From the NCBI GenBank assembly GCA_031416355.1, contig JANOTM010000151.1, positions 1-37,853 of the forward strand: a DNA stretch of 37,853 bases, read 5' to 3'. A model generated the notes under the pieces. The model made no database searches, was not told the origin of the DNA, and saw only the letters and a program-made list of their open reading frames with translations. Within the stretch, counting starts at the first letter, position 1, and each line of letters starts with the position of its first letter. Positions 13,185-27,921 of this stretch are shown here, piece after piece. Source of the DNA: Gammaproteobacteria bacterium. GTDB taxonomy: Bacteria > Pseudomonadota > Gammaproteobacteria > Acidiferrobacterales > UBA6901. Made by a program: the position numbers and the translations under genes.

Positions 13185-13198
13185 TTGATACATATCAA
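13185..13198. promoter_or_regulatory. perfect FNR/ANR/FixK-type box TTGAT-ACAT-ATCAA
   Basis: Exact match to the TTGAT-N4-ATCAA consensus. It lies in the divergent spacer between atpC and the first cytochrome gene. A TAAAAA -10-like hexamer at 13223-13228 fits class II spacing. Confidence 0.6.
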
Positions 13199-13301: not shown

Positions 13302-13315
13302 TTGATTTAGATCAA
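13302..13315. promoter_or_regulatory. perfect FNR/ANR/FixK-type box TTGAT-TTAG-ATCAA
   Basis: Exact consensus match, centred 141 nt upstream of the ATG at 13450 and 117 bp from the first box. Confidence 0.6.
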
Positions 13316-13449: not shown

Positions 13450-14130
13450 ATGAGAACGCCTACAAGAAGCACCACGTTTCTGAGTCGTTTTGCAGCAGTT
13501 GGGGGCGCGTCTCTGCTTATAGCAAGCGCGCAGGCGGGGACCATCGTCGGGTCGCCGCACGATTTTTCCACGACGGGCTGGGCTGGCGGGCAGATCTGCG
13601 TGGCCTGCCACACGCCCCATAACGCCAACGTCACGGTGACCGATGCGCCGCTGTGGAATCACGCCCTGACGACCAAGACATATGCGCTTTATACCTCCCC
13701 CACGTTAAATGCCGCCACCGGCCAACCGGGCGGGGCATCCAAACTTTGCTTGTCGTGCCATGACGGCACGGTCGCTATCGACAGCTTCGGCGGCACCACC
13801 GGGACTAACCTGATGGGCGGCAGCGATGCCGTCGGCCGCGGGCCAGCCGATCTGACCGACGATCACCCGATCTCCATCACCTATAACACGGCGTTGGCGA
13901 CGGCGGATGGCGGTCTGTACGACCCGGCTACCCGGACCGTCGCGATCGGTTCCGGCACGCAGACGCGGACCGGTACGGTGGCGGCCACCTTGCTGTACAA
14001 TGGGCAGCTGCAGTGCGCGTCGTGCCACGACGTGCACAACACCTTCACCGTCGGCGGCATCAACGGCGAGCCGCTCCTCAAGGTCAGCAAGGCCGGCAGC
14101 GCTTTGTGTCTAACTTGTCACAATAAATAA
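13450..14130 (+). CDS. tetrahaem c-type cytochrome, exported
   Basis: 226 aa with signal peptide ...LLIASAQA and four CXXCH motifs (CVACH, CLSCH, CASCH, CLTCH). SPHDFS...CxxCHTPHN resembles the doubled-CXXCH domain type. A strong SD AAGGAGG lies 5 nt before the ATG. Confidence 0.9.
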   Translation: MRTPTRSTTFLSRFAAVGGASLLIASAQAGTIVGSPHDFSTTGWAGGQICVACHTPHNANVTVTDAPLWNHALTTKTYALYTSPTLNAATGQPGGASKLCLSCHDGTVAIDSFGGTTGTNLMGGSDAVGRGPADLTDDHPISITYNTALATADGGLYDPATRTVAIGSGTQTRTGTVAATLLYNGQLQCASCHDVHNTFTVGGINGEPLLKVSKAGSALCLTCHNK

Positions 14131-14153
14131 AACCAAAGGCTCGACCCCAAAAC

Positions 14154-14172
14154 CCCTGGCGCAACGCCAGGG
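14154..14172 (+). other. intercistronic GC hairpin (ccctggcg-caa-cgccaggg)
   Basis: 8-bp perfect stem with a 3-nt loop, 24 nt after the tetrahaem gene stop. No U-tract follows. Confidence 0.5.
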
Positions 14173-14218
14173 CTGGGGCAGAAATGGGGTAAAATCCGCG
14201 AGCGGAAAGGAGGTCGGT

Positions 14219-15373
14219 ATGCCGTTGCGGCTGGGGTGGTTTTACGCCCGTATCAGAATGAACGCCATCGCACCCGCTGTGGTATGTGCAGGCGCCGTGG
14301 CGATCGCCCTGTTGACCGGTTGCGCCACCACCCCTATAACCCGGAGCGCGGCCGCACCGGTCTTCTATCCGCCACTGCCTAACCCACCGCGCATTCAATA
14401 TCTCACGACGTTCTCGTCCGCGCGCGATTTGGCGCACAAACCCGGCGCATTCGCCGAGTTCATCTTCGGCAAGGAGACCGCCGACACCCAGGGCGTTAAA
14501 AAGCCCTACGGTGTAGCGTTGCACGACGGCAAGATCTACGTGGTCGACACACGTGGGCCGGGTTATGCGATCTTTGATCTCGTCAACCGGCGCTTCGAGA
14601 CCGTATCCGGCAGCGGCGGTGGCAAGATGCAAAAGCCGATCAACATTACCGTCGATCACGACGGCACCAAATACGTCACCGACACCGGTCGCGATCAGGT
14701 GCTGGTCTACGACCGCGATAACCGCTACCTGCGCGCCTACGGCGTGCAGGGGCAGTTCAAGCCGGGCGACGTGGCGATCGCGGGCGACCGGCTTTACATC
14801 ACTGACCTCAGTCACCACGCGATCGAGGTGCTCGATAAAGACTCGGGCAAGACGTTATTCAAGTTCGGCGCGACCGGTTCGAAGGACGGCGAGCTGTATC
14901 ACCCGACCAATCTCGCGCTCGCCGGTGGATATCTATATGTCGCCGACACCGGCAATTACCGTATTCAGAAATATACACTCGACGGTACGTTCGTGCGCAG
15001 CTACGGGCAGATTGGCAGCGGCCTCGGTCAGTTCGCGCGCCCGAAGGGGGTGGCGCTCGATGCGGACGGGCGCATGTACGTCGTCGATGCCGCGTTCGAG
15101 AACATCCAGGTGTTCGACGCCGATGGCATGCTGCTGCTCTTCTTCGGCGAGCCGGGCGACCGTCCGGAAAACATCAATCTGCCGACCAAGGTGACGATCG
15201 ATTCGGCGCACGTCGCGTTGTTCCAGCGCTACGCCGACCCGAAGTTCAAGCTCGAATACGTGATCCTGGTGGCGAGTCAGTTCGGAGCCAACAAAGTGAA
15301 CGCCTTCGGCATCGGCAAGATGGACGACATGGACTACGCCATCACGGAGCGGACCGAGCGAGAGCAGCGATGA
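14219..15373 (+). CDS. NHL-repeat beta-propeller lipoprotein (paralog 1)
   Basis: 384 aa. AGGAGG lies 5 nt before ATG 14219, and ATG 14258 is an alternative start. It has a lipobox ALLTGC. Repeated NHL-type blades include YGVALHDGKIYVVDT, LYHPTNLALAGGYLYVADTGNYRIQKY and FARPKGVALDADGRMYVVDAAFENIQVFD. Confidence 0.85.
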   Translation: MPLRLGWFYARIRMNAIAPAVVCAGAVAIALLTGCATTPITRSAAAPVFYPPLPNPPRIQYLTTFSSARDLAHKPGAFAEFIFGKETADTQGVKKPYGVALHDGKIYVVDTRGPGYAIFDLVNRRFETVSGSGGGKMQKPINITVDHDGTKYVTDTGRDQVLVYDRDNRYLRAYGVQGQFKPGDVAIAGDRLYITDLSHHAIEVLDKDSGKTLFKFGATGSKDGELYHPTNLALAGGYLYVADTGNYRIQKYTLDGTFVRSYGQIGSGLGQFARPKGVALDADGRMYVVDAAFENIQVFDADGMLLLFFGEPGDRPENINLPTKVTIDSAHVALFQRYADPKFKLEYVILVASQFGANKVNAFGIGKMDDMDYAITERTEREQR

Positions 15374-15385
15374 CACCGGTGCATA

Positions 15386-17443
15386 ATGCTGCAGACGCGT
15401 GGTAACCGAAATGATGCAATGCAAGGAAAATCATGTTCAGGCACAGCATCGATCCGATGCGGCTGGCGCGGGCCGGGGCTGATCGCCCTGGCCGCCTGCA
15501 TGCCCGCATTCGCGCTCGGCCAGGAGCCGGAGATCGCACCGTTTCGCCTCACCAGTATCGAGGGCTATATGGCGCTGCGCTACGCCGAGGATGAGCAGCG
15601 GCTCGGTTCGACCGGCGGCGTCGCGCGCGAGCGGCGTTCGACCTGGGAAGAGGAGGTGTTCGTGCAGACTCGAAGCTACATCTACCACCCGAACTTTCTT
15701 AAGTTCGACCTGGGGGCCGGTCCGCTGTTTGCGCAAAATCGTTTCGAATCCGACGCGGGTAGCAGCCGTTCCAACGACGGGCTCTACAACCTGACCGCGC
15801 GCGCGAGTTTTCTGGAGCAGAAGCCATATCCGTTCGCGCTGTACTACGAGCACCTGAATCCGTCGGTCTCCGTCGGCCTCACCCAGACTTTTCGCCAGGA
15901 AAACGACAAGTACGGTTTCAACCTTGCGTTGCGCCAGCCGCTGACGCCGATACTATTGACACTCGATGCCTTCCGGCTGACGACCAAAGGTGAAGGTTTT
16001 GATATCATCGTGGACGACACTATCGATCAGGCGACGCTGCGGGCGCATCAGTCGTTCGGCGCGGGCAACTACAACCAGCTCATGTTCCAGACCACGCACC
16101 AGGAATCCTTGAGCGGCAGCCCGAATCTACCGATCCAGCCAACCACCACCGATACCGATTTGTGGAATCTCGACTCGCGCGCCACGTTCGGCGCGCAGCG
16201 GCAGTTTCTGCTCACGAACATCGTTTCCTACACCACGCAGAACTACACCCTCGGGAGCGAGACGCCAGCACGGCGCGACCTGCGCGTCAGCCCGGACCTG
16301 CGCTGGGAACATTCGCCGGCGCTGTATTCATTCTATCGGGTCAATCTACTGCAGAGCGAAGAACGCCAGCTCGAGACACTGCACCGTTCCGCGGTGGCGG
16401 GTCTGGCGCATCGCCCCGACGACCGCTGGTTCACCACCACCGACGTGCATGCCGAACGCTTCGATGCTACCGGGTTCACGCAGCACACCGATGGCGTCGC
16501 CGGGTCCATCAGCTACCGTCGCCCGATCCCCGTCGGCAGCCTGCAGCTGAGCTACGCCGCGCGCTACGACCTAAAGGACCGCGACGCCCCAGCGGTGCAG
16601 GTCGCGATCTTCGGCGAGCGCATCACGCTTGCCGACGCGATCGCGGTAACGCTCGCCAACGACTTCATCGTGCCCGGGACCATCGTCGTGAGGAATCTTA
16701 CGCGCACGCAAATCTACGCCGAAGGTCTGGACTACCGCGTCATCGCGATCGGCGCCAAGACTCAAATTCAGCGATTGGTGGCGGGCAATATCCTCGACGG
16801 CCAAGAGGTGCTCGTGGACTACGCCTACCAGACCGGCGGTTCGGTTGCGTACGCGACGTTCGACCAGAATCTCCAGACGAACCTTGCGTTGTTTCGCTAC
16901 TACAATTTGTTTGCACGTTACCGCGACGTCGCGCAGGACGTGCGCTCGGGTGTGCCGACACTACCGCTCAATCCCGGGCGCAACACGTTATACGGCGCGC
17001 GCGCCGACGTACCGGTGTGGCGCGAGTGGATGGTGGGCGGCGAGGTGACGCGCGAGGAACAGAGCGAGGATATCTCACCCTACATGCGGCGCAGCATCGA
17101 CACTTACGTACAGTTACTGCTGCCGTATGCAAGCACGTTGCGCGTCGCCGGCCGGCGCGTCGTGGCTGACAACCTCAACTCGCCCGAGGACGTGGACCTG
17201 CGCGGATACAGCGTTCTGCTGCGCGCGCGCCCGGGTTTTCGTGCGACACTGGTCGCCGAAGCGAACGTCGACAAGGACATCGGCGGCACGATACCACGCG
17301 AGTTCCAGTCGCGCGTCCTGGCGGCGGAATGGCGCTACCGGCAGTTGAGTTTGCGTGCCGAGGCGCGTTCCGCGCGCGAGGTGCAGGGCGGGTTCGAGCG
17401 CGAACGCAGGTTGATCCGCGTGCAGGCGCGGCGGGATTTTTGA
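15386..17443 (+). CDS. predicted outer-membrane beta-barrel porin
   Basis: 685 aa with signal peptide (GLIALAACMPAFALG). It shows a long run of alternating hydrophobic/polar strands rich in Y, R, N, G and T, and has no CXXCH. The C-terminus ...VQARRDF ends in Phe as in OMP barrels. The start is uncertain (15386 or 15419). Confidence 0.65.
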   Translation: MLQTRGNRNDAMQGKSCSGTASIRCGWRGPGLIALAACMPAFALGQEPEIAPFRLTSIEGYMALRYAEDEQRLGSTGGVARERRSTWEEEVFVQTRSYIYHPNFLKFDLGAGPLFAQNRFESDAGSSRSNDGLYNLTARASFLEQKPYPFALYYEHLNPSVSVGLTQTFRQENDKYGFNLALRQPLTPILLTLDAFRLTTKGEGFDIIVDDTIDQATLRAHQSFGAGNYNQLMFQTTHQESLSGSPNLPIQPTTTDTDLWNLDSRATFGAQRQFLLTNIVSYTTQNYTLGSETPARRDLRVSPDLRWEHSPALYSFYRVNLLQSEERQLETLHRSAVAGLAHRPDDRWFTTTDVHAERFDATGFTQHTDGVAGSISYRRPIPVGSLQLSYAARYDLKDRDAPAVQVAIFGERITLADAIAVTLANDFIVPGTIVVRNLTRTQIYAEGLDYRVIAIGAKTQIQRLVAGNILDGQEVLVDYAYQTGGSVAYATFDQNLQTNLALFRYYNLFARYRDVAQDVRSGVPTLPLNPGRNTLYGARADVPVWREWMVGGEVTREEQSEDISPYMRRSIDTYVQLLLPYASTLRVAGRRVVADNLNSPEDVDLRGYSVLLRARPGFRATLVAEANVDKDIGGTIPREFQSRVLAAEWRYRQLSLRAEARSAREVQGGFERERRLIRVQARRDF

Positions 17444-17445
17444 CG

Positions 17446-18555
17446 ATGCGCGCCTTCGCGATGCCGTTGCCGGAGATGCGGAACCGCCGGGTTCCGGGTC
17501 GCGCGCCGCGGCGGACGGACAACAAGGTATCGCATCGCGTTACATCGATCATCCTGGCTGCCGCGCTCGCGGCAGTCGCCTGCGCCCCTTTGTCGCGGAC
17601 TGCGGCACTCCCCGACGCACCGCGCGCATGGCCCGAGCCGCCGGCCCCGGCGCGGATCGTCTACGTGCGCAGCTTCTCGCGCCCGCAGGATCTAGGCATT
17701 ACCAAGGGTTTGTTTCAGCGACTCGGCGAATTTTTTGTCGGGCGCGACGATGTACGTCTGGTCCGCCCCATGGCGGTCGTTGCGTGGGGCGACGACCTCG
17801 TATTCGTCGCCGATCCGGGCGCCAAGGGTGTGCACCGCTTCGATCTCGCCAAGGGCCGACACCATCTCATCCGCCGCGAAGGCGGTGCGCCGCTGCCCTC
17901 GCCGGTCGGTCTGGCGCTGGGCGTGCACGGAGAGGCCTATGTTACCGACTCCGCGCTCGGTCAGGTATTCGTCATTCGGCCCGGCGCGAAAGCGGCGGCG
18001 GCGCTCGCGCTCGCGGCCACGCTCGCGCAACCGACCGGTATTGCGCTCGATCCGGCGACCGGACGGCTCTACGTGGTCGATACCGCGAACCATGAGGTAA
18101 AGATATTTACGCCGGACGGCGCGTTGCACGCTACGTTCGGCCGACGCGGCACGGGCGACGGCGAGTTCAACTATCCGACAATGATCTGGCGCGACGTCGG
18201 CGGGCGGCTGTTCGTCGCCGATTCGCTCAACTTCCGCACCCAGATGTTCGACGCGGCCGGGAGACCGCTCGGCAAATTCGGCAAGCTCGGCGACGCGACC
18301 GGCGACCTGGCACGCCCGAAGGGCGTCGCCACCGACCGCTTCGGGCACGTGTACGTGGTCGATTCGATGTTTCATGCGCTGCAAGTTTTCGATACCGAAG
18401 GCCGACTCCTGCTCCACATCGGCAGCCAGGGGCGCGCGCCGGGCGAGTTCTGGCTGCCCACCGGCGTGTATGTCGGCGCGCAGGACAAAATCTACGTCGC
18501 CGATACACACAACCGGCGGGTGCAGGTGTTTCGCTACGTCGGGAGCGAGCCGTGA
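17446..18555 (+). CDS. NHL-repeat beta-propeller (lipo)protein (paralog 2)
   Basis: ATG 17446 lies 2 nt after the porin stop. The N-terminus ...ILAAALAAVAC has a lipobox-like Cys. PAPARIVYVRSF parallels PNPPRIQYLTTF of paralog 1. NHL blades include FNYPTMIWRDVGGRLFVADSLNFRTQMFD and LARPKGVATDRFGHVYVVDSMFHALQVFD. Confidence 0.85.
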   Translation: MRAFAMPLPEMRNRRVPGRAPRRTDNKVSHRVTSIILAAALAAVACAPLSRTAALPDAPRAWPEPPAPARIVYVRSFSRPQDLGITKGLFQRLGEFFVGRDDVRLVRPMAVVAWGDDLVFVADPGAKGVHRFDLAKGRHHLIRREGGAPLPSPVGLALGVHGEAYVTDSALGQVFVIRPGAKAAAALALAATLAQPTGIALDPATGRLYVVDTANHEVKIFTPDGALHATFGRRGTGDGEFNYPTMIWRDVGGRLFVADSLNFRTQMFDAAGRPLGKFGKLGDATGDLARPKGVATDRFGHVYVVDSMFHALQVFDTEGRLLLHIGSQGRAPGEFWLPTGVYVGAQDKIYVADTHNRRVQVFRYVGSEP

Positions 18556-20246
18556 ATCGGTACGCGCTGACGTGTGTCTCGTTGATTCTCGGTCTCGGCG
18601 TTCTTGCGGCCGCTGCCGACGTCGCGACGACGAAACACAATCTTTCCGTCAGCGGACCAGGGGCGATCAAGGCGACGGATGAATCGCAGATATGTGTCTT
18701 CTGCCATACGCCGCACAACGCACGTCCGATCTCGCCGCTATGGAACCGCCGCGATTCCGGCAGCACCTATGTTCCGTATACGAGCTCGACCGCGGTCGCT
18801 GTGCCGGGCCAACCGACGGGTTCTTCGGTACTCTGTCTGTCGTGCCACGACGGCACTATAGCGCTCGGTGAGGTACTGAGCCGCGCGACGTCGATCCCGA
18901 TGGCGGGCGGGACCACCACCTTGCCGACCGGTGCCGGGCGCCTCGGCACCGATTTGTCCGACGATCATCCGGTCTCGTTTGTGTACTCCGCCGGGCTCGC
19001 GAGCCAACGCGGCGAGCTCGTGAACCCGGCGACGCTCACCGGCGCCATCAAGTTGGATGCATCCGGGCAGCTCCAATGCACGAGCTGCCACAACGCGCAC
19101 GACGACATCTTTGGAAAATTTCTGGTGATGTCGAATCGTGGTTCGGGGTTGTGCCAGACTTGTCACACCAAGAATTTCTGGTCGCAGACCGCGCACCGGG
19201 CGTCGACCGCGATCTGGAACGGTGTCGGGCCGAATCCCTGGCCGCACACGCCATGGACCAATGTCGCGGACAACGCGTGTGAGAACTGCCATCGCCCGCA
19301 CATAGCCGGTGGCCGGCAGAGCCTGCTCAACTATCAAGTCGAGGAAACCAATTGCAGCGTGTGCCACGGCGGCAACGTCGCGCAGAAAAATGTCGCGGGC
19401 GAGTTCAACAAGAGCTCGAACCATCCCATCGCCGACACGACCGGCACGCACAGCCCATCGGAGCCGGCTGTGGTGAGCGCACGTCACGTCGAGTGCGCGG
19501 ACTGCCATAACCCGCACGCGGCGCGCGCCGCCGGGGCCGGCACGCCGCCCGGCTCGCTCGCGGGCGTGCGTGGTGTCGGCATCACCGGGGCCGAGGTGAA
19601 CCCGGTGACGCATGAATATCAACTATGTTTCCGCTGCCACGCCGACAGTCCCAACAAACCTCCGCCGCGCACCACGCGCCAGATCGCGCAGACCAACGTG
19701 CGTCTCGAGTTCGCCACGACCAATCCGTCGTACCATCCGGTCGCCGGCCCCGGCCGCAATGCGAACGTGCCGAGCTTGATGGCGCCGCTCACCACTGCGA
19801 GCACCATCGGTTGCGGCGACTGCCACAACAACAACGCCGCGCCGAAGGCCGGCGGCGTCGGACCGAACGGTCCGCACGGCTCGATCTACGCGCCGTTATT
19901 GGTGCGGCAATACGTGACCGTCGACAACTCCGCCGAGAGCAGCTCCGCCTATGCGCTGTGCTACTCCTGCCATAGTCGCGACAGCGTTCTCGGCGACCAG
20001 AGTTTCCGTGAACACCGCAAGCATATCGTCGGGGAACGCACGCCGTGCAACGTCTGCCACGATCCGCACGGCATCAGCGGCAGCCAGGGCAACAGCGAGA
20101 ACAACACCAAGCTCATCAACTTCGATACCTCGGTGGTCCGCCCCAGCTCCTCCGGGTTGCTGCGATTCGAGTCGTCCGGGACGTTCACCGGGCGCTGCTA
20201 TCTCATGTGCCATGGTGAGAATCACGACCCCAAACCATCGAGGTAG
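18552..20246 (+). CDS. undecahaem c-type cytochrome (11 CXXCH plus 1 CX3CH), exported
   Basis: 564 aa with a GTG start overlapping the upstream stop by 4 nt, GGGAG about 7 nt upstream, and signal peptide SLILGLGVLAAAA. I counted 11 CXXCH plus CYLMCH. The first roughly 205 aa are colinear with the 226-aa tetrahaem protein. Confidence 0.9.
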   Translation: MNRYALTCVSLILGLGVLAAAADVATTKHNLSVSGPGAIKATDESQICVFCHTPHNARPISPLWNRRDSGSTYVPYTSSTAVAVPGQPTGSSVLCLSCHDGTIALGEVLSRATSIPMAGGTTTLPTGAGRLGTDLSDDHPVSFVYSAGLASQRGELVNPATLTGAIKLDASGQLQCTSCHNAHDDIFGKFLVMSNRGSGLCQTCHTKNFWSQTAHRASTAIWNGVGPNPWPHTPWTNVADNACENCHRPHIAGGRQSLLNYQVEETNCSVCHGGNVAQKNVAGEFNKSSNHPIADTTGTHSPSEPAVVSARHVECADCHNPHAARAAGAGTPPGSLAGVRGVGITGAEVNPVTHEYQLCFRCHADSPNKPPPRTTRQIAQTNVRLEFATTNPSYHPVAGPGRNANVPSLMAPLTTASTIGCGDCHNNNAAPKAGGVGPNGPHGSIYAPLLVRQYVTVDNSAESSSAYALCYSCHSRDSVLGDQSFREHRKHIVGERTPCNVCHDPHGISGSQGNSENNTKLINFDTSVVRPSSSGLLRFESSGTFTGRCYLMCHGENHDPKPSR

Positions 20247-20285
20247 AGTAGTGGGAGGCGAGACTAGATATGGGCGCCTCGTTGT

Positions 20286-20299
20286 TTGATCTGGATCAA
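20286..20299. promoter_or_regulatory. perfect FNR/ANR/FixK-type box TTGAT-CTGG-ATCAA inside the cluster
   Basis: Exact consensus match in the spacer between the 11-haem and 8-haem genes. It is preceded by a 6-bp hairpin (gaggcg/cgcctc, 20255-20280) and GTTGTTT. Confidence 0.55.
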
Positions 20300-20328
20300 A
20301 GGCAGTGCATGAGGATAGGTGCAAGGTA

Positions 20329-21366
20329 ATGGTATGCGGACCGGCTCGACGGTACGGGCGTGCGGGCGGCGCGGGTGCGCGCGGGACGATCGCCTGGGTC
20401 GCCGGCGTTGCGATGCTGTTGGCGGCGGGTACGGGCCTGCCGGCGCAGGAGAAGCGGGCGATGCCGAATGTCGATGAAAAACAACTGCTCGATCAGCCGC
20501 AGCGCATTCCCGCGCTGCTCGCGCAGCAGGCGTTGCGCGTCGAGCAGGTGCCGAACCCGCACTGGCGACGCGACGCGTGCCAGGCGTGTCACAGCGGACC
20601 GGCGACCCGGGCGGCGGTCAAGCTGCGCGACGTGGACGTGAACCGCTCGTGCAACACCTGCCATGACGCGGTATGGCCGCATAGTTACATTCACCCGGCC
20701 GGCATGAAGCCGGCGGAGGACATGCAGCGGCGCATGTCCGAGACGTTTCGCCAGTCGCTCAGGCGCGGCGCCGGCACGGTTACCTGCGCCACTTGCCACG
20801 ATGTGCCGATGCAATGCCTGCCGGAGCGCGTGCGCGAACGCGCGCTCAATCCGCTGTTCCTTCGCGGCGGGCCGTACAAGGCGCGCACCGGCATCTGTTA
20901 CCAGTGCCACGATCCAAAACAGTACGAGCGCCTGAACCCGCACGACCAGGTTGCCGACGACGGCGCGATGCGCGAGAACCTATGCCTCGTATGTCACCGC
21001 GACACCCAGGGACTGAAGGACATGCGCGCGAGCGCCGGCCTGCGCTTCGTTACCGACGACCTGTCGGCGCTTTGCACCGGTTGTCACAAGTCGATTCCGC
21101 ATCCGGGCGGCGTTTCATTCTCGGGCAAAGCCGGCCCGAGTCATTTTGTGGCGCCGTCGAAGGCAGTGGCGGCACGCATGAAGCGGGCGGAACGCCTATA
21201 CGAGATTTCCTTGCCCCTAGACCCCGGGACCGGCAAGGTGTACTGCGCCACCTGTCACAACCCGCACGAACGCGGCGTAGTGCTGCGCACGGCTGCGGCC
21301 AAGGGCGCCGACAGCAAGGATCGATTGCGTACCTCCGACATCTGTGCGATGTGTCATGAAAAATAG
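20329..21366 (+). CDS. octahaem c-type cytochrome, exported
   Basis: The ORF opens at GTG 20305 and the first ATG is at 20329. The signal region is GTIAWVAGVAMLLAAGTG. Eight CXXCH motifs are present (CQACH, CNTCH, CATCH, CYQCH, CLVCH, CTGCH, CATCH, CAMCH). Confidence 0.88.
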   Translation: MVCGPARRYGRAGGAGARGTIAWVAGVAMLLAAGTGLPAQEKRAMPNVDEKQLLDQPQRIPALLAQQALRVEQVPNPHWRRDACQACHSGPATRAAVKLRDVDVNRSCNTCHDAVWPHSYIHPAGMKPAEDMQRRMSETFRQSLRRGAGTVTCATCHDVPMQCLPERVRERALNPLFLRGGPYKARTGICYQCHDPKQYERLNPHDQVADDGAMRENLCLVCHRDTQGLKDMRASAGLRFVTDDLSALCTGCHKSIPHPGGVSFSGKAGPSHFVAPSKAVAARMKRAERLYEISLPLDPGTGKVYCATCHNPHERGVVLRTAAAKGADSKDRLRTSDICAMCHEK

Positions 21367-22477
21367 GCAATCCAACGTAGGGCGGCGCGCGCTTTTCGGA
21401 CTGGCGCTGTTCCTGCTCGCGAGTGCCGGCGCGCGCGCGTTCGAAGACAGCGAAGGTTGTCTGGTATGCCACAAGTACCCGCGCATGGGGCGCATCACCG
21501 AGGACGGGGTGCTGCGGTCCTATTACATCCAGCCGCAGGTCTACGGCAAGACGGTGCACCGTAACGTACCGTGCCGCGACTGCCACACCGAGATCAAGGA
21601 GCTGCCACATAAGCCGGTGAAGGTCGGCGTCACCTGCAACACCGAATGCCATTCGATCAAGAACCCGGCGACCGGCAAACCGTTCAGCCACAAGCCGATC
21701 TACGACGTCTACCGCGCGAGCATCCACGGGCGCGACAAACTCGCCACCGGTCTCGACGCGGACAAGCCGTATTGCGTGACATGTCACACCAATCCGCTGT
21801 ACAACCCGGCGGAAAACGAACCACCGAAACAGATCGTCGCGCGCTGCGTGATTTGCCATGAGGACAAGGACTTCGTCACGCGTTGGTACAATCATACCAG
21901 CCGGCGCATTCGCGAGGTGCGGCGTACACCGGGCGAGATCGTGGCGTTGTGTTCCACCTGTCACGACGACCGGAAGATGGTCGCGCGCCACGTGCAGGCG
22001 GCGAAGGCCGATGGGCGCGCGCTCGGGCGCAAGTTTGCCTATGCCGTCGATTCGTATTACGAAAGCTTTCACGGCAAGATGACCCGCTATGGGTTTACCG
22101 CGGCCGCCAACTGTCTCGATTGCCACGCCGATGCCGCCAACTATTTCAAGGGCGTGCACGAGATCCGCCCGTCGCGCGATCCGGCCTCGCCGGTGCACGC
22201 CGACCAGCGCCTGCGGACGTGCCAGCGCTGCCACACGTCTGCCGATGAGAACTACGCGCGGCTCGATCCGCACCCCACCAGCCTGCGCGCGGACAATCCG
22301 TTCCGCTACTACGCCGAGTGGATTTACAACGTCATCGGCGCCGTCGTGATCACCGGCCTCGTCGGTCTAGCGCTGTTCGAGACCTACAGGCGGCGGCGTG
22401 ACGGTGTGGCGTGGCTGCTGCGCCACGGTTCCTCGTGGCGGCGCAAAAGCCGGCGCGGGCGGGACCGGATTAAGTGA
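21356..22477 (+). CDS. heptahaem c-type cytochrome (7 CXXCH plus 1 CX3CH) with C-terminal membrane anchor
   Basis: ATG 21356 (MKNRQSNVGRRALFGLALFLLASAGARA) overlaps the upstream gene by 11 nt. Seven CXXCH plus CNTECH are present. The C-terminal TM WIYNVIGAVVITGLVGLALF is followed by RRRRD. Confidence 0.88.
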   Translation: MKNRQSNVGRRALFGLALFLLASAGARAFEDSEGCLVCHKYPRMGRITEDGVLRSYYIQPQVYGKTVHRNVPCRDCHTEIKELPHKPVKVGVTCNTECHSIKNPATGKPFSHKPIYDVYRASIHGRDKLATGLDADKPYCVTCHTNPLYNPAENEPPKQIVARCVICHEDKDFVTRWYNHTSRRIREVRRTPGEIVALCSTCHDDRKMVARHVQAAKADGRALGRKFAYAVDSYYESFHGKMTRYGFTAAANCLDCHADAANYFKGVHEIRPSRDPASPVHADQRLRTCQRCHTSADENYARLDPHPTSLRADNPFRYYAEWIYNVIGAVVITGLVGLALFETYRRRRDGVAWLLRHGSSWRRKSRRGRDRIK

Positions 22478-22519
22478 GCAGGCCAGAATGGCCCCAATGA
22501 AAACGAAGGTGACGACACG

Positions 22520-23449
22520 ATGAAATTATCCAAGCCCGCGCGCGATGTCCTCGAAACCTCGCTGCGTCAGAATCGAATCGACGCGCGCGAGCGCAAGGAA
22601 ATCGAGGCGCTCATCGCGCTTCTGCCCGCGGACCGCGTGCTGTTCTACAAGAACGTGGTGTCGAATCCGCTCGGCGATCTGTACCGCTATTCTATCCACA
22701 TCCGCATCCAGCACATGCTGATCTTCGTCACGTTCCTCACGCTCGCCTTCACCGGCCTGCCGATCCACTTCTTCGACTCGTTCTGGGCCGGGCCGCTCAA
22801 CGCACTGCTCGGCGGTGTGAGCGTCACCCGCATCATTCACCGTACCATCGCCGTCATCATGATTCTGGCGATGGCCTACCACATCCTCACCCTCACGCTC
22901 GGAACGCTCGCGCGCCTCAAGGCCGGCACCTTCGATCTCCGCCGCACCATCGTGCCGCTGCCGAAGGATATCCGCGACTTCAAGGAGGACCTCTTGTATT
23001 TCTCGGGCAAGCGCGGCCAGCGTCCGGAGATGGATAAATTCAATTACAAGCAGAAGATCCACTACTTCGCCGCCGGTTTCGGCAACACCGTGATGGTGGT
23101 GTCGGGCTCGACCTTCCTGTTTCCCGAATTGTGGGCGGCGATGCTGCCGGCCGGCATGGTGGCGCATTGGCAGGAGCTGATGCGCCTGTCGCACCCGCAC
23201 GAGGCGTTGTTGGCGCTGCTCGTGATCGCCTTCTGGCATTGGTACAATGTGCACCTCGCGCCCGGACGCTTCCCAATGCAATGGACGTTCCTCACCGGCA
23301 AGATCACGCGCGAGCACCAAATCGAGGAACATTTCCTGGAGTATCTGCGCAACCTGGTGGAACAACCGCAGGAGCGGCAGGCGCTGCTGGGCATGCTGGA
23401 GAGCCGCGAACTGGCGGGCGGGCCCCCCGCCGACGAGGGCGTACCATGA
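22520..23449 (+). CDS. membrane b-type cytochrome, FdnI/HydC/PhsC-like (Ni_hydr_CYTB type)
   Basis: 309 aa with four predicted TM helices. Conserved His residues are placed as in dihaem cytochrome b subunits (RIQHML, IIHRTIAVIMILAMAYH, KIHYF, HPHEALLALLVIAFWHWYNVH). SD AAGGTG is upstream. Confidence 0.75.
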   Translation: MKLSKPARDVLETSLRQNRIDARERKEIEALIALLPADRVLFYKNVVSNPLGDLYRYSIHIRIQHMLIFVTFLTLAFTGLPIHFFDSFWAGPLNALLGGVSVTRIIHRTIAVIMILAMAYHILTLTLGTLARLKAGTFDLRRTIVPLPKDIRDFKEDLLYFSGKRGQRPEMDKFNYKQKIHYFAAGFGNTVMVVSGSTFLFPELWAAMLPAGMVAHWQELMRLSHPHEALLALLVIAFWHWYNVHLAPGRFPMQWTFLTGKITREHQIEEHFLEYLRNLVEQPQERQALLGMLESRELAGGPPADEGVP

Positions 23450-23571
23450 TCAAGCCCATGACACCATGGCAGAAGGCGATCGCCTACGGGGCGCTGGTGG
23501 TCATGCTCATCTGGACCGCGCTCGGCATGCTCGCGGTCTGGCTCATGCTCACCGATCCACACGGGCACTGA
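23446..23571 (+). CDS. 41-aa single-TM peptide, translationally coupled to cytochrome b
   Basis: My own reading: the ATG overlaps the cytochrome b stop as ATGA. The sequence is MIKPMTPWQKAIAYGALVVMLIWTALGMLAVWLMLTDPHGH, with one clear TM helix. It fills the gap up to the next SD. Confidence 0.5.
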   Translation: MIKPMTPWQKAIAYGALVVMLIWTALGMLAVWLMLTDPHGH

Positions 23572-23583
23572 AGGGAGACGCGC

Positions 23584-24660
23584 ATGCACGGCAACGAAAC
23601 GCTCGGCGTACTGGTAATCGTGACGGTGCTGCTATTTTTCGGCCTCGGCATTGCGATGATGGTCATCATGGACCACAAGGCGCGGTTGCCCGGGGGCTTC
23701 ACCGAGAATCCGTTCAGCGTCGTCGGCATGCATCGCGACCACCCGGTAATCGCGTTCCTGACCGCGGCCATCCTGCTTAGCGTCATCGCAGCGCTGCTGC
23801 TGGCGCTGTTCGGTGCGTTGGCCGGGACGTTCGGGTTATTCCAGGCGCCGGCGCCGCCGGCGCTGCTCAGCCGCCTGAGCGAGGAGCGCACCGCCGAGCG
23901 GCTGCGCCATTTTCACAATATGCCAGCGCAGGACCTGACGGCGCTGGGCAAAAAAAACGTGTGCTTCTTCTGCCACGGCGACTATCCGCATTCGAAGGAG
24001 CCGATGGTGCGCACGCTGCTCAACATGCATACGCAGTTCATCGGCTGCATGACGTGTCACGCCAGCGAGCGCAAGTTGCCGGAAGATCGATTGCGGCTCG
24101 CGTGGCTTAATTACTCGGGACTGGCGGTGACGGGCCGGCCGTACGGCATCGACATCGATCCCGCCACCGGCATGCTGATCGAGACGGACGATTTGTATTC
24201 CAAGATCGTCGCCTACGCCCAAACAGGGACGACCGAGACACTGCTTGAAATCACCGCCGATGACCCGCAAGCGCGGGAATTCGTGGCGCTACAGAGTAAG
24301 CTTTCTGACCATGACCGCGAGGCGGTCAAAAAAACCTTCCACAAGCAGGTGGGCGCCAACGGCCGGTCTTGCGGCCGCTGCCATGCGAACGAGGCCAAGA
24401 GCTACGTGCCGTTCCGCGCACTCGGTTTTTCCGAGCGGCGAGTTCGCGAGCTGACTCAACTCAACATCATCGGACTCGTGCAAAACTATCGGGAGTTCTA
24501 TCTTCCGAGCTTGATGAAATCGGGCCATGCGCCGTCGGAAGAGGCCGGCGCACCGGCGCCGGCAGGCCCCGCGGCCGAGGACGTCCTGCGCAACGACCCG
24601 CGCGGGTGGTGGAAGCGAACCTATGACGCACCGACTGAACCAGCGAAAGACAAGCCATAA
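23584..24660 (+). CDS. membrane-anchored trihaem c-type cytochrome
   Basis: 358 aa. SD AAGGGAG lies 6 nt before the ATG. There are two N-terminal TM helices and three CXXCH motifs (CFFCH, CMTCH, CGRCH). Confidence 0.85.
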   Translation: MHGNETLGVLVIVTVLLFFGLGIAMMVIMDHKARLPGGFTENPFSVVGMHRDHPVIAFLTAAILLSVIAALLLALFGALAGTFGLFQAPAPPALLSRLSEERTAERLRHFHNMPAQDLTALGKKNVCFFCHGDYPHSKEPMVRTLLNMHTQFIGCMTCHASERKLPEDRLRLAWLNYSGLAVTGRPYGIDIDPATGMLIETDDLYSKIVAYAQTGTTETLLEITADDPQAREFVALQSKLSDHDREAVKKTFHKQVGANGRSCGRCHANEAKSYVPFRALGFSERRVRELTQLNIIGLVQNYREFYLPSLMKSGHAPSEEAGAPAPAGPAAEDVLRNDPRGWWKRTYDAPTEPAKDKP

Positions 24661-25582
24661 TGGCACGTGTGCCGCGCTCGCGTGCCTGCTGGCGGCGACG
24701 TTGGGTCACGCGGCCTTCGCCGCCCCGCCCATTCCTACGCGCGACATCCGGCACGTGCATAACCTCACGACCGCGGGCGGCGTGCCGCTGTCGCTGCCAA
24801 CCGACGTCGCCATCGGCCGCGACGGCCGAATTTACGTAGTCGACAGCGGCAATCACCGGCTGGTCGCGTTCGACCGCGGCGGGCGCTTTCTTTTCAGTGT
24901 CGGCCAGCCGGGCAAAGGACGTGGACAGTTCAAGGACCCGGTCGGCATCGGCACCGGGTCGGACGGCGCAGTGTACGTCGCCGACAAAGGCAATCAGCGC
25001 ATTCAGGTATTTGAACCAGACGGTGCGTTGCGTCATGTCTTCCCCGTAGCGTACGCCGGCAAGCCGGTGTCGCCGGTCGACGTCGCTGTCGATGCCGCCG
25101 GCAAAACGCTTTACGTCACCGGCAACAGCAACCACCGTGTCATGGCCTATACCCCGGGTGGACGGTTTCTGCGTCAGTGGGGCGGAGAGGGCGTGAATCG
25201 CGGCGAATTCCGTTATCCCGCGACGGTGGCGGTGAACGCCGAGGGCTCGGTGTTCGTGGTGGATGTGTTCAACACGCGGGTGCAGGTATTTGATCGTGGC
25301 GGGCGCGTTTATGCGGTGGGTGAGTGGGGCGTACTGCCCGGCCAGTTGTTCCGGCCCAAGGGCGTCGCGCTCGATAGGAACGGACGGATTTACGTCAGCG
25401 ACAGCTACCTCGATGTGGTCCAGGTGTTCGATAACGAATACCGGTTCCTGGCCGTGCTAGGGCGCGGCGGCAGACCGCAGCGCTTGACCTCGCCGGCCGG
25501 TATCACGATCGATGGTAGTGACCGGTTGTATATCTCCGAGATGCTGAAACACCAGGTCTCAGTGTACGAGTTGCGGCCATGA
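24623..25582 (+). CDS. NHL-repeat beta-propeller protein (paralog 3), exported
   Basis: The ORF opens at 24527. The signal peptide begins at ATG 24623 (MTHRLNQRKTSHNGTCAALACLLAATLGHAAFA). NHL blades include LPTDVAIGRDGRIYVVDSGNHRLVAFD, FRYPATVAVNAEGSVFVVDVFNTRVQVFD and LFRPKGVALDRNGRIYVSDSYLDVVQVFD. Confidence 0.85.
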   Translation: MTHRLNQRKTSHNGTCAALACLLAATLGHAAFAAPPIPTRDIRHVHNLTTAGGVPLSLPTDVAIGRDGRIYVVDSGNHRLVAFDRGGRFLFSVGQPGKGRGQFKDPVGIGTGSDGAVYVADKGNQRIQVFEPDGALRHVFPVAYAGKPVSPVDVAVDAAGKTLYVTGNSNHRVMAYTPGGRFLRQWGGEGVNRGEFRYPATVAVNAEGSVFVVDVFNTRVQVFDRGGRVYAVGEWGVLPGQLFRPKGVALDRNGRIYVSDSYLDVVQVFDNEYRFLAVLGRGGRPQRLTSPAGITIDGSDRLYISEMLKHQVSVYELRP

Positions 25583-27921
25583 ACGGCATGCGCCGAGGTG
25601 CGCGGTTTATTGCCTTGCTGATCGCGTCCGCGCCGCTCGCCACGCACGCGGCGAGCGATATCGCGGAGAACCGCGAGTGCGCCACCTGCCACATCATGTC
25701 ACTCGCCGATTTCAAGCGCGACGACGTGACGCCGTTGGTTGCCTACGATCCCAGGCCTATGGTCGAAACCGGCAGGCAGGACGTGTCCTCGACCGAGCGC
25801 ATGTGTTTCTCCTGCCACGACGGGTTCGTGCTCGACTCGCGTTCGGTCTGGCGCAACAAACACCACGAGCATCCGGTCGGGGTGCGGCCATCGAGCAAGG
25901 TGAGGATTCCAACGGCGCGCGGCAAGGTCGTGTTCCCGCTGAACGACGACGGCAAGCTGTACTGCGGCACCTGTCACACCGCGCATGGTGTGGATTGGGC
26001 GCAGACCGAATCGCCGGTGTTCATGCGCGTCAAGAACGTCGATTCGAGCTTATGTCTTGCATGTCATCTCGACCGGGGGACCGGACCGGCCGCGGGCAAC
26101 CATCCGGTGTTTGGCAAGCTCGACGCATGGCCGGCGGCGCTGCTCGCGGCCGGCGGCAAGCCGGGCCGCCACGACGACGTGACCTGCGAGTCTTGCCATC
26201 GCACACACGGCGGTGCCCAGGACAAGATGCTGGTACTGGCGAATACGGATTCGCAGTTGTGCGGCGCGTGCCACGCCGACAAGTACCGGATTCGCAAGAC
26301 CAAGCACGATCTGTCGGTTATGGCACCCGAGGCGCGCAACCGCAAGGGCCACACCGCCGTCGAGTCTGGGCCGTGCGGCGTGTGCCACGTGGCGCACGGC
26401 GGCAATGGACCGGACTGGTGGGCGCGAGATATCACGAACCCCGAGTCCACCGGCGGGCGCTGCCTGAGCTGCCATCAGCCCGAGGGGCTCGCTAAGAAAA
26501 AAACCATCGGTGAACACACGCATCCGATCAACGTTCCGGTGGCCAATGCCGGCATCACCGCCACGATCAAGGGCTGGGTCAGCCGCTTCTCGCTTCTCAA
26601 CAAAGATGATCCGCTGCTGCCGTTGCCGCTGTACGACAAGCGCGGTCTGCACACGCGTACCGGCGGCAACGTCGGATGCGGTACCTGCCACGATCCGCAC
26701 GTGTGGTCCCCGGCGGAAGCGGCCTCCGGCGATCCGCGCAAGATCGAAGGCGGCGCGCGCGACAGCTTTCTGCGCATGACGGCCGATGGCGACGGAAAAC
26801 TGTGTGCAAACTGCCATGTGGACAAGGGCGCGGTGGCGCTGTCCAAACACAATCCCACCGTCATGGCGGCCGCAAAAATCCGCTCGCAGGAAAAAAAGGC
26901 ACCAAAGATTCCGGATGCAGGACGCACAGCAGACGCCGGCGTATGCGGCGCATGCCACGCGCCGCACAATGCCAAGGCATCCAATCTCTGGGCACGCGAC
27001 CGCGGACCGGGCGCGGGCTTTACCGAGGCGCTCTGCAACGATTGCCACCGTGACGGCGGCGAGGCTGGCAACAAGCGCGTTGGCGCGCACAGCCATCCGC
27101 TCAACGTGAAGCTTGCGCCAGGCATGACGTCGCGGCTGCCGCTGTACACCGCCGCCGGCCGTAGTCAAACGGCCGAGGCCAAAGTGGATTGCGCCACCTG
27201 TCACGACCCGCACCAATGGACCCCGGCGGATGCGGCGAGCCGCGCGGGCACCCGGGCCGACGTGGACGGCGATGCGCGCGACAGTTTTCTGCGCCTCACG
27301 GCCAGCGGCCGCGCGGATTTGTGCGTCGAGTGTCATCAGGCACAGCGCTTCGTGCGCGGCAGCGATCACGATCTCTCAGTCACCGCCCCGCAAGACACCA
27401 ATGCCAAAGCACAGACCGTCGTGCAATCGGGGGTCTGCGGCCAGTGCCATGTGCCGCACAATGCGCCGCACGCACAAGGCCTGTGGGCGCGCGCCCCGGG
27501 GGCCGCGCCGGAAGAGAACGAGAGGCTCTGCCGCAGTTGCCACGCACAGGGCAAAACCGCCGCCAGCAAAGTGCCATCCGAGAGCCGTCATCCCCTCAAC
27601 ATCACTGTGTGGTCCGACCGGGTGCGTGCCGGCTACCGCCCGGGCGCGAGCACCGGCCTACCGGTTTTTAACCGCGATGGGAGACGCGACATCACCGGCA
27701 TTATCACGTGCGTGAGCTGTCATGATCCCCACCAGTGGAGCGCGCGCCACGCCACGGAAGGTCCGGGCAGGAATGTCGAAGGCGACGTCGGCAACAGCTT
27801 CCTGCGGCTGGAGCAGAGCGCCGAATTCGTGTGCGCCGACTGCCACGGCCTCGATGCGTTGTTCCGCTACAAATATTTTCACGGCAAGTCGTCACGCAAG
27901 GAGTATCCGCTCTATCGTTGA
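25579..27921 (+). CDS. 18-haem c-type cytochrome, exported, internally repetitive
   Basis: 780 aa with an ATGA overlap with the upstream gene and signal peptide FIALLIASAPLATHAA. I counted 18 CXXCH motifs. Three clear tandem tetrahaem modules of about 175 aa are present, plus a degenerate N-terminal copy. Confidence 0.9.
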   Translation: MNGMRRGARFIALLIASAPLATHAASDIAENRECATCHIMSLADFKRDDVTPLVAYDPRPMVETGRQDVSSTERMCFSCHDGFVLDSRSVWRNKHHEHPVGVRPSSKVRIPTARGKVVFPLNDDGKLYCGTCHTAHGVDWAQTESPVFMRVKNVDSSLCLACHLDRGTGPAAGNHPVFGKLDAWPAALLAAGGKPGRHDDVTCESCHRTHGGAQDKMLVLANTDSQLCGACHADKYRIRKTKHDLSVMAPEARNRKGHTAVESGPCGVCHVAHGGNGPDWWARDITNPESTGGRCLSCHQPEGLAKKKTIGEHTHPINVPVANAGITATIKGWVSRFSLLNKDDPLLPLPLYDKRGLHTRTGGNVGCGTCHDPHVWSPAEAASGDPRKIEGGARDSFLRMTADGDGKLCANCHVDKGAVALSKHNPTVMAAAKIRSQEKKAPKIPDAGRTADAGVCGACHAPHNAKASNLWARDRGPGAGFTEALCNDCHRDGGEAGNKRVGAHSHPLNVKLAPGMTSRLPLYTAAGRSQTAEAKVDCATCHDPHQWTPADAASRAGTRADVDGDARDSFLRLTASGRADLCVECHQAQRFVRGSDHDLSVTAPQDTNAKAQTVVQSGVCGQCHVPHNAPHAQGLWARAPGAAPEENERLCRSCHAQGKTAASKVPSESRHPLNITVWSDRVRAGYRPGASTGLPVFNRDGRRDITGIITCVSCHDPHQWSARHATEGPGRNVEGDVGNSFLRLEQSAEFVCADCHGLDALFRYKYFHGKSSRKEYPLYR

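Follow-up and report, generated by a model that had tools for sequence, protein, structure and literature searches.

The locus considered here raises a question in two parts: what do twelve adjacent, cytochrome-rich genes build together, and does the result belong to a system that is already known? The genes occupy positions 13450-27921 of a 37,853-nucleotide (nt) stretch of contig JANOTM010000151.1 (assembly GCA_031416355.1, Gammaproteobacteria bacterium, Acidiferrobacterales), and this whole stretch is referred to below as the window. In an original prediction, made from the sequence alone, they had been described as a twelve-gene operon for a trans-envelope electron conduit belonging to none of the characterized systems. 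The reading narrowly favored here is a two-block composite that would by itself connect the quinone pool with an extracellular cytochrome fiber. It draws on homologies, synteny, a barrel fold, membrane topologies and regulatory boxes. It is preferred because the first gene (g1) encodes a full-length homologue of the filament cytochrome OmcE with all eight heme-ligating histidines, the classes of parts are shared with omcE clusters, the cassette around g1 is conserved, and a wide barrel is confidently modeled.

Open reading frame (ORF) listing and translation yielded twelve ORFs, all on the plus strand and numbered g1-g12 (Table 1), and identical gene calls were found in the public metagenome-assembled genome (MAG) contig matching the window (GCA_031427175.1). 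The junctions calculated from the coordinates measured, from g1 to g12, +88, +12, +2, -4, +58, -23, +42, -4, +12, -38 and -4 nt, in agreement with the predicted range and its three 4-nt overlaps. Recounting on the translations returned the expected 51 CXXCH motifs (4 in g1, 11 in g5, 8 in g6, 7 in g7, 3 in g10 and 18 in g12) and two CX3CH motifs, one in g5 (C549) and one in g7 (C98). Since both of the latter are invariant within their families (C549/C553/H554 of g5 and C98/C102/H103 of g7), about 53 c-heme sites are likely present in the cluster. As had been proposed, the parts list spans the inner membrane, the periplasm and the outer membrane, and no component has been biochemically characterized in this lineage.

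The claim that none of the characterized systems is represented did not survive the analysis of g1 and g5. In a sequence search of solved structures, g1 aligned end to end with chain A of PDB 7tfs (E=1.7e-21, residues 23-226) and with chain N of PDB 9yuq (E=1.2e-18), the latter being presumably the OmcE bundle of Desulfuromonas soudanensis. Residues 10-207 of g5 matched 7tfs_A with E=2.7e-35. The entry 7tfs is taken here to be the solved OmcE filament of Geobacter sulfurreducens (GSU0618; Wang et al. 2022), which was confirmed when Geobacter loci were found with a query reconstructed from its alignment.

The g1 family keeps the four CXXCH motifs and the four distal histidines of OmcE, the eight ligand positions being conserved in 35-37 of 37 members, and the heme number was fixed at four in the extracted homologues. 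Compared with the OmcE homologues from two omcE loci of Geobacter type (L133 and L137), identity was 34-35% for g1 and 32-37% for the N-terminal domain of g5; g1 and this domain are 41% identical to each other. In g5 the OmcE-like tetraheme domain (approximately residues 24-207) is fused to an extension of seven to eight hemes. Eleven CXXCH motifs were present in 30 of 30 g5 homologues extracted from the first 47 loci and not cut by a contig end, and 7598 database proteins were matched by the g5 family. A heme-free AlphaFold2 monomer of g5 was poor (predicted local distance difference test, pLDDT, 57.5) and was left unused. A g5-g1 fusion, indicated by long tblastn matches in Ignavibacteria and Calditrichia, was ruled out, as the matches correspond to adjacent but separate ORFs. 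A ninth conserved histidine was also observed in g1, H71 in the motif LWNH, which is shared by 34 of 37 family members; Geobacter OmcE and the g5 N-terminal domain have LWNR at this place.

For the OmcE bundle of D. soudanensis, a minimal omcE cluster has been described in a preprint as OmcE, two beta-propeller lipoproteins, a large beta-barrel proposed as secretion pore or anchor, and two multiheme cytochromes, and OmcE homologues with such neighbors were reported from five phyla including Pseudomonadota (10.1101/2025.10.22.684050). The window offers the same classes: a full-length tetraheme homologue, homologous NHL lipoproteins, a large barrel and two bigger multiheme cytochromes (g5 and g6). 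Across 33 loci, the Geobacter-type order was 9-heme, 8-heme, NHL, OmcE, (NHL), a barrel of about 750 amino acids (aa) and glycosyltransferases, and the sub-order OmcE-NHL-barrel is common to these clusters and the window. In 30 Geobacter-type loci, the NHL lipoproteins on either side of omcE shared 28-35% identity with the g4 product (E 1e-39 to 1e-54), and g4 also matched the TRIM71/Thin NHL structures with E=5e-82. In most loci a g2 homologue adjoins the OmcE-like gene. Of 43 members of the g2 family, 38 show a lipobox-like motif, and because of the alanine at +2, g2 is assigned to the outer-membrane type of lipoprotein. With g11, a paralogue of both (34-36% identity), g2 and g4 make up the three six-bladed NHL propellers that had been predicted and that Pfam recovered. 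With slight preference, the first block is thereby read as the gammaproteobacterial form of the gene set accompanying OmcE-type extracellular cytochrome filaments.

The description as a twelve-gene unit had to be revised after the twelve proteins were compared with 47 loci found through g3 and with the best 80 of at least about 600 loci found through g5. A widespread five-gene cassette (g1-g5) and a lineage-restricted second block were distinguished. In the same or a permuted order, the cassette was found in Gammaproteobacteria, Betaproteobacteria, Ignavibacteria, Bacteroidota, Calditrichota, Nitrospirota, Verrucomicrobiota and Planctomycetota, and also in Myxococcota, Desulfobacterota, Acidobacteriota, Zixibacteria, Eisenbacteria and Omnitrophota, the loci with it spanning about 13 phyla. 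Within 9 kb of the 11-heme gene, 64 of the 76 loci with sufficient upstream flank carried genes for a 4-heme protein, for two or more NHL proteins and for a g3-family barrel. The g5 family itself was matched in at least about 600 species-representative genomes.

The remaining genes behaved differently. Among the compared loci, g7-g12 (block B) were found only in some Gammaproteobacteria, namely Acidiferrobacteraceae, Arenicellales, Thioalkalispiraceae and further MAGs, and in Betaproteobacteria the five-gene cassette stands without them. Block B is inverted as a whole, with its internal order kept, in loci L010 and L092; Woeseiaceae and Thiodiazotropha have an incomplete form. Inversion of the second block leaves g6 beside g1-g5; in L010 and L054 it follows g5 and the next gene lies on the opposite strand. 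It is counted here with the cassette as block A.

The outer-membrane part of the path is represented by g3, predicted as a barrel ending in ...RRDF. No Pfam match was obtained for it, and there is no Pfam model for its family. From an input alignment of 118 relatives, AlphaFold2 returned a confident barrel model (pLDDT 92.7, pTM 0.82) with about 28-30 transmembrane (TM) strands. A simple geometry estimate of our own gives a C-alpha diameter near 5 nm for 28 strands, wider than the 26-strand MtrB; the barrel is therefore wide enough for a cytochrome, and the concern that it might be too narrow does not apply. A small beta-rich insertion at about residues 378-444 holds the most conserved motif of the family, DGQxVLVDYAYxTGG. 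This numbering refers to the 647-aa form of the public annotation, which starts at 15500, 38 codons into the 685-aa ORF; the likely start is 15419. Because the barrel carries no CXXCH or other heme motif, the system is not of the Cyc2 type, as had been stated. Foldseek returned only generic large barrels, with MtrB as the best match (TM-score 0.43), followed by FimD/PapC ushers, LptD and TonB-dependent receptors, and at these scores no specific family could be assigned. The family comprises 2468 clusters at 50% identity (E<=1e-3). A single-sequence g3 scan of species genomes gave no matches, and the loci of g3 relatives were obtained from a scan with a 10-sequence alignment.

Arranged as a pathway, these parts suggest that g1 would be exported through, or assembled at, g3 to form an OmcE-like fiber outside the cell, with g3 serving as exit and/or anchoring pore. 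The outer-membrane lipoproteins g2 and g4 may scaffold or chaperone this assembly, and g5 would be seated in the g3 barrel, wiring the periplasm to the fiber. Many of the same observations would be accommodated by a plain porin-cytochrome conduit without a fiber, the kind of model originally predicted. Here g5 would thread g3 as MtrA does MtrB, the NHL lipoproteins would hold g1 at the surface as a monomeric terminal reductase or oxidase, and block B and g12 would feed the electrons. The barrel is of the MtrB size class with MtrB as its best structural match, the 11/12-heme rod is MtrA-like in length, and polymerization is not proven by sequence. Moreover, the Uet model of Candidatus Tenderia electrophaga places the tetraheme and undecaheme cytochromes outside a 28-strand barrel with two NHL proteins. 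Such a conduit is considered possible but doubtful, given that g1 is an end-to-end OmcE homologue that keeps every heme ligand, and its gene set is of the class in which proven filament subunits are encoded. The two models are also compatible, as g5 within g3 could be the base of the fiber.

Two further observations fit a polymer subunit better than a 1:1 partner of g5. The first is a hairpin after g1 (Table 1), whose strongest 44-nt window reached -25.1 kcal/mol; across 127 loci, the strongest hairpin after the tetraheme gene had a median of -22.7 kcal/mol, compared with about -14 downstream of each of the four remaining genes of the cassette. This pattern is as expected for an over-produced fiber subunit, but the contrast is only suggestive because the control regions are mostly coding. 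When the whole 98-nt g1-g2 gap region was folded, the result was no better than shuffles (z=-1.0, not significant), so that support for the hairpin comes from the comparison across loci. The second is abundance in situ: in a sulfide-chimney metaproteome, a related gammaproteobacterial tetraheme cytochrome ranked third to fifth in protein abundance (PMC6850669). That protein is 44% identical to the Tenderia tetraheme, and the gammaproteobacterial tetrahemes group with those of Tenderia and Leptothrix cholodnii (PMC6850669).

At the inner membrane, g7 and g8 are read as a putative CbcBA-like quinol/quinone:cytochrome c oxidoreductase, with g9 and g10 as probable extra membrane subunits of this complex, g6 and g12 as candidate periplasmic relays and g11 as a third NHL protein. 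The g7 product has a TM helix at residues 327-345 followed by a basic tail, and hydropathy agreed with the predicted C-terminal anchor of g7, the g9 peptide and the two N-terminal helices of g10. The b-type cytochrome assignment of g8 was upheld by Pfam (Ni_hydr_CYTB, PF01292, E=1e-9, 38.9 bits against a cut-off of 30.1) and by an FdnI-like NCBIfam match below its cut-off (TIGR01583, E=1.1e-13). Two of its four proposed TM helices were scored by hydropathy; the other two were sub-threshold and were read by eye. Six histidines (His65, 107, 121, 225, 240 and 245), located in or beside the membrane segments, are invariant in 13 family members. Homologues of g9 with 38-40 aa occur at the same position in seven loci, and the peptide is also called in the public annotation. 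For g10, three CXXCH motifs were present in 8 of 8 homologues, and no family above cut-off was found in Pfam or NCBIfam. Together, g9 and g10 add three helices and three hemes to g7/g8.

Eight CXXCH motifs were found in 9 of 9 extracted g6 homologues. The g6 product shows weak similarity, with 22-28% identity and E values of 1e-4 to 3e-6, to the 8-heme cytochrome of Geobacter omcE clusters, and it contains an NrfB-like stretch (E=5.6e-6). The pair g11-g12 echoes g4-g5, with an NHL gene followed by a cytochrome gene and a 4-nt overlap, and five module matches to the g1/g5-family profile mark g12 as a distant paralogue of g5 and g1. It could be either a periplasmic wire or an exported protein. 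No solved relative of g12 was found in the structure sequence search, in which g6, g7, g8 and g12 gave nothing informative beyond generic heme motifs. In ten loci the g12 homologues carried 8, 16, 18, 22, 23 or 24 CXXCH motifs, in contrast to the other cytochromes, whose heme numbers are fixed. In two MAGs of Ca. Thiodiazotropha lucinid-clam symbionts, the cassette and g6-g8 plus g10 are followed by a second, divergent g7/g8-like pair, and g11 and g12 were not detected within the part of the locus fetched.

Blocks A and B might also be two unrelated neighboring systems that exchange no electrons, g1-g6 acting at the outer membrane and outside the cell and g7-g12 forming an independent respiratory module that might serve, for instance, a soluble substrate in the periplasm. 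Block A does occur alone in Betaproteobacteria and most other phyla, block B is inverted or partial in the genomes named above, and the g5-g6 gap holds a regulatory box of its own in front of g6 and block B. This explanation is judged improbable. The adjacency of the blocks survives rearrangement in about 20 gammaproteobacterial genomes, and more distant g7/g8-like pairs recur near the cassette in Verrucomicrobiota and Planctomycetota, from which a functional link is argued. In addition, g11 and g12 are paralogous to the NHL and cytochrome families of the cassette itself, the same type of regulatory box occurs in both blocks, and no catalytic subunit defining another substrate was found in block B with Pfam or NCBIfam. 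In the preferred composite, the contact between the blocks is a predicted one.

The regulatory boxes are three perfect palindromes of the form TTGAT-N4-ATCAA (Table 1), compared with 0.04 expected in the window by chance. This sequence is the FNR/ANR-type consensus. In related loci, 9 of 20 perfect boxes were located within 450 bp upstream of the OmcE-like gene, a region making up 2.5% of the sequence, and eight of these nine loci were gammaproteobacterial; in all nine, the g1 homologue starts 110-198 nt downstream of the box. Boxes with one mismatch were found in the g5-g6 gap of four loci. Since boxes of this type stand in both blocks, control by low oxygen is likely, with the pathway probably induced through an FNR-like regulator when oxygen is scarce. 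A sigma-54 promoter such as the one driving Geobacter cbcBA was also considered and rejected, as there were fewer matches than expected by chance, none of them upstream of g1. Inside the cluster, neither a sigma-70 consensus nor a convincing terminator was found.

As regards the predicted operon, the co-directional and tightly spaced genes are as described. A single transcript for all twelve is nevertheless only putative, because a box lies in the g5-g6 gap and g7-g12 form a separate unit in other genomes. For the direction of electron flow, the low-oxygen signal gives a slight lean to outward rather than inward transfer. FNR-type regulators also switch on microaerobic oxidases. The Uet and Desulfovibrio ferrophilus relatives have been discussed as uptake systems (10.1101/2022.05.06.490989, PMC10734462; PMC5815863).

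Several points weigh against the fiber-forming composite. Polymerization of g1 and entry of g5 into g3 are predictions from sequence, and the accessory roles of secretion or anchoring in omcE clusters are themselves a proposal of the preprint (10.1101/2025.10.22.684050). The g3 family shows no detectable relation to the Geobacter omcE barrel: a profile-profile comparison of 118 g3 relatives with 7 Geobacter-type barrels gave an hhalign probability of 1.5% (E=0.034), and there was no match of the g3 hidden Markov model in Geobacter loci, so that homology was rejected. Gene order also differs from that of Geobacter, whose 9- and 8-heme partners, unlike g5, have no OmcE-like domain. Only short generic heme-motif matches to such a domain were seen in the 9-heme partner, and the similarity of g5 and g6 to the 9- and 8-heme proteins is weak (E 1e-4 to 1e-8). 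Geobacter is reported to manage current production and the reduction of Fe(III) oxide without OmcE (PMC13194489). The anchor region of g7 (residues 320-350) contains no histidine, whereas the CbcA anchor is described as giving the fourth b-heme histidine (10.1101/2021.04.15.440034); g8 itself holds enough invariant histidines. For a simple activator site, the box in the g5-g6 gap stands too near the g6 start codon. Block B is missing from most genomes that carry block A, and A therefore does not need B. Lastly, the Uet and D. ferrophilus clusters had been described as known from omics only, which fits the literature except that cytochrome genes of the D. ferrophilus NHL-cytochrome clusters have been deleted, with no Fe(III) oxide phenotype (PMC9769857).

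A function outside extracellular electron transfer was also weighed, in which the hemes would form a periplasmic redox buffer or detoxification system, the NHL proteins would be enzymes and the barrel a substrate channel. NHL and SGL-type propellers do include enzymes, and there were weak Pfam matches to SGL, arylesterase and Vgb lyase; moreover, the functions of all members are sequence-based predictions. This explanation is regarded as highly improbable in view of the OmcE homology of g1 and g5 and of a barrel far wider than solute channels. Two of the propellers are predicted lipoproteins, and no catalytic family above its cut-off was found for g2 and g4 in Pfam or NCBIfam. Cathodes, electron-donor starvation and metal sulfides are conditions under which related clusters are expressed.

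Table 1. Coordinates of the twelve genes and of the sequence signals in the window.
Feature	Position	Strand	Description
FNR/CRP-type box	13185..13198		perfect palindrome TTGATACATATCAA, about 258 nt upstream of the g1 start codon
FNR-type box	13302..13315		perfect palindrome TTGATTTAGATCAA, about 141 nt upstream of g1
g1	13450..14130	+	secreted tetraheme cytochrome, OmcE homologue; signal peptide from sequence reading; proposed fiber subunit
Stem-loop	14145..14178	+	GC-rich, directly 3' of the g1 stop codon, without U-tract
g2	14219..15373	+	NHL beta-propeller lipoprotein; Pfam NHL E=5.8e-17; lipobox LLTG-C, Ala at +2
g3	15386..17443	+	outer-membrane beta-barrel, about 28-30 strands, 685-aa ORF
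g4	17446..18555	+	second NHL beta-propeller lipoprotein; Pfam NHL E=2e-27; lipobox AAVA-C, Ala at +2
g5	18552..20246	+	564-aa cytochrome, 11 CXXCH and 1 CX3CH; OmcE-like N-terminal domain and 7-8-heme extension
FNR-type box	20286..20299		perfect palindrome TTGATCTGGATCAA, g5-g6 gap, 6-30 nt before possible g6 starts
g6	20305..21366	+	periplasmic 8-heme cytochrome; start 20305 or 20329
g7	21344..22477	+	cytochrome c, 7 CXXCH and CX3CH, C-terminal TM anchor, basic cytoplasmic tail
g8	22520..23449	+	4-TM b-type cytochrome, HydC/FdnI (Ni_hydr_CYTB) type; presumed quinone site
g9	23446..23571	+	41-aa single-TM peptide; 4-nt overlap with g8
g10	23584..24660	+	two N-terminal TM helices and periplasmic 3-heme domain
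g11	24623..25582	+	third NHL beta-propeller; Pfam NHL E=4.3e-34, four repeats resolved; signal peptide apparently non-lipoprotein
g12	25579..27921	+	18-heme cytochrome made of g1/g5-like modules

Two genes on the minus strand flank the cluster. Convergent and downstream, the gene at 27957-28892 encodes a cytochrome c biogenesis CcmH/CycH immunoglobulin-like domain (PF23892, E=1.3e-37) and may provide a heme-maturation helper beside the 53-heme cluster. Just upstream, at 12506-12931, there is a lone gene with the N-terminal domain of the ATP synthase epsilon chain and no other atp genes nearby; its position is conserved in other contigs of the same organism. No Rfam match was obtained anywhere in the window. 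The Mfd protein of the window is 80-85% identical to that of uncultured gammaproteobacterial MAGs, 63% to that of an Acidiferrobacterales MAG and 58% to that of a Thiohalobacteraceae MAG. Three MAG records titled 'Halobacteria archaeon' encode bacterial Mfd proteins 53-56% identical to it, and these bins are probably mislabeled or contaminated.

Among the related cassettes, seven from Ignavibacteria, Calditrichia, Bacteroidota, Planctomycetota and Omnitrophota carry an extra five-heme lipoprotein of about 190 aa beside the barrel gene, which is absent from the window. Cultured carriers of a whole or partial cassette are Azoarcus sp. Aa7, whose cassette order equals that of the window, Desulforhopalus sp. 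IMCC35007 and Planctomycetales bacterium ZRK34, in which no tetraheme gene was detected near g5. All three are possible experimental hosts.

How cytochrome nanowires leave the cell, are anchored and are fed have been stated as open questions, and the omcE operons of Geobacter are described as encoding no candidate for the base or the tip (10.1101/2025.10.22.684050). Beside a confident model of a wide barrel, g5 offers a testable candidate for the anchor, in which an OmcE-like domain is joined to a heme rod of barrel length. A tentative and on balance unlikely extension joins several of the proposals above: g5 would be the membrane end of an OmcE-type nanowire, its tail threading the 28-30-strand barrel and its head nucleating or capping the g1 fiber. 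The cassette would then mark such fibers in hundreds of species from about 13 phyla, and in Gammaproteobacteria of the sulfur-oxidizer type the fiber would be coupled directly to a quinone oxidoreductase of its own, controlled by low oxygen. If this were true, abundant sediment Gammaproteobacteria would gain a route to swap electrons with minerals or partner cells.

The range of OmcE-like clusters is widened by the comparison from five reported phyla to about thirteen, including Planctomycetota, Verrucomicrobiota, Bacteroidota, Ignavibacteria and Acidobacteriota. The composite form occurs in uncultured Gammaproteobacteria close to Acidiferrobacterales, Thioalkalispiraceae, Woeseiaceae and Thiodiazotropha, and it indicates a particular partner at the inner membrane as well as a switch responding to low oxygen. 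It bears on how sulfur-oxidizing sediment bacteria may use minerals, and possibly partner cells, as electron sinks or sources. No description of the composite g1-g12 cluster was found in the literature searched.

When known systems are considered, the Uet cluster of Ca. Tenderia electrophaga (Tenderiales) and some Gallionella resembles the window in several parts. It is described with a tetraheme UetA, a barrel UetC of 28 predicted strands, the NHL proteins UetH and UetI, and UetJ, a 'doubled CXXCH' cytochrome with 11/12 motifs (10.1101/2022.05.06.490989; PMC10734462). By this description a tetraheme, an undecaheme, a barrel of about 28 strands and two NHL proteins are shared (g1, g5, g3, g2 and g4), and both systems are gammaproteobacterial and known from omics only. 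Differences were found as well: Pfam and NCBIfam revealed in the twelve products no domains of the peptidyl-prolyl isomerase UetB, the triheme c7 proteins UetD/E/G or the cupredoxin UetF, the gene order differs, and Uet has no attached b-type cytochrome module. Tenderia was not among the best 80 of the at least about 600 g5-family loci. It is suggested that the Uet 'conduit' may be a nanowire system.

The closest description for block B is that of Geobacter CbcBA (GSU0593-0594), a genetically characterized inner-membrane bc-type cytochrome proposed as a quinone oxidoreductase (10.1101/2021.04.15.440034). By described architecture, both combine a seven-CXXCH cytochrome c with a C-terminal TM anchor (g7) and a separate 4-TM diheme cytochrome b of the hydrogenase/formate-dehydrogenase gamma type (g8). 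The window differs in the order c then b, in the extra invariant CX3CH of g7, in the addition of g9 and g10, and in a signal of FNR type rather than sigma-54 type.

With MtrCAB, MtoAB and PioAB, the window shares the principle of a wide barrel enclosing a multiheme rod. The prediction that it belongs to none of the three was borne out: g3 gave no MtrB_PioB match, and the model of the DmsE-family decaheme (TIGR03508) scored 18-62 bits against a cut-off of 192 bits. Unlike these systems, the window has no MtrC/OmcA-type decaheme, and it has NHL lipoproteins and an OmcE-like subunit.

Multiheme cytochromes interleaved with NHL propellers are also described for D. ferrophilus (DFE_0448-0451 and DFE_0461-0465), expressed under electron-donor limitation (PMC5815863; PMC9769857), and for the Occ cluster of Ca. 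Dechloromonas occultata, expressed under Mn(III)-reducing conditions (10.1101/695007). In contrast to the window, the D. ferrophilus clusters are without an apparent porin, and Occ comprises 19 genes with an undecaheme OccP of 922 aa compared with the 564 aa of g5 (10.1101/695007). The osc cluster for OmcS nanowires, in the summary of Shen et al. 2025 given in PMC13194489, provides channel-like, beta-propeller-like and folding-helper companions. As far as that summary goes, dedicated companions for a cytochrome fiber are common to both; the subunit family differs, OmcS being hexaheme, and the window has no prolyl isomerase.

The Geobacter omcE clusters thus remain the reference for block A. 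The window differs from them in having no glycosylation island, in resB/ccsB not being adjacent, and in the attached quinone-linked genes g7-g12. Since what is new lies in the g5 fusion, the unrelated barrel family and the attached CbcBA-like block, the locus is placed as a variant and not as a separate category, and block A is a distinct sub-type within the recently recognized kind of OmcE cluster.

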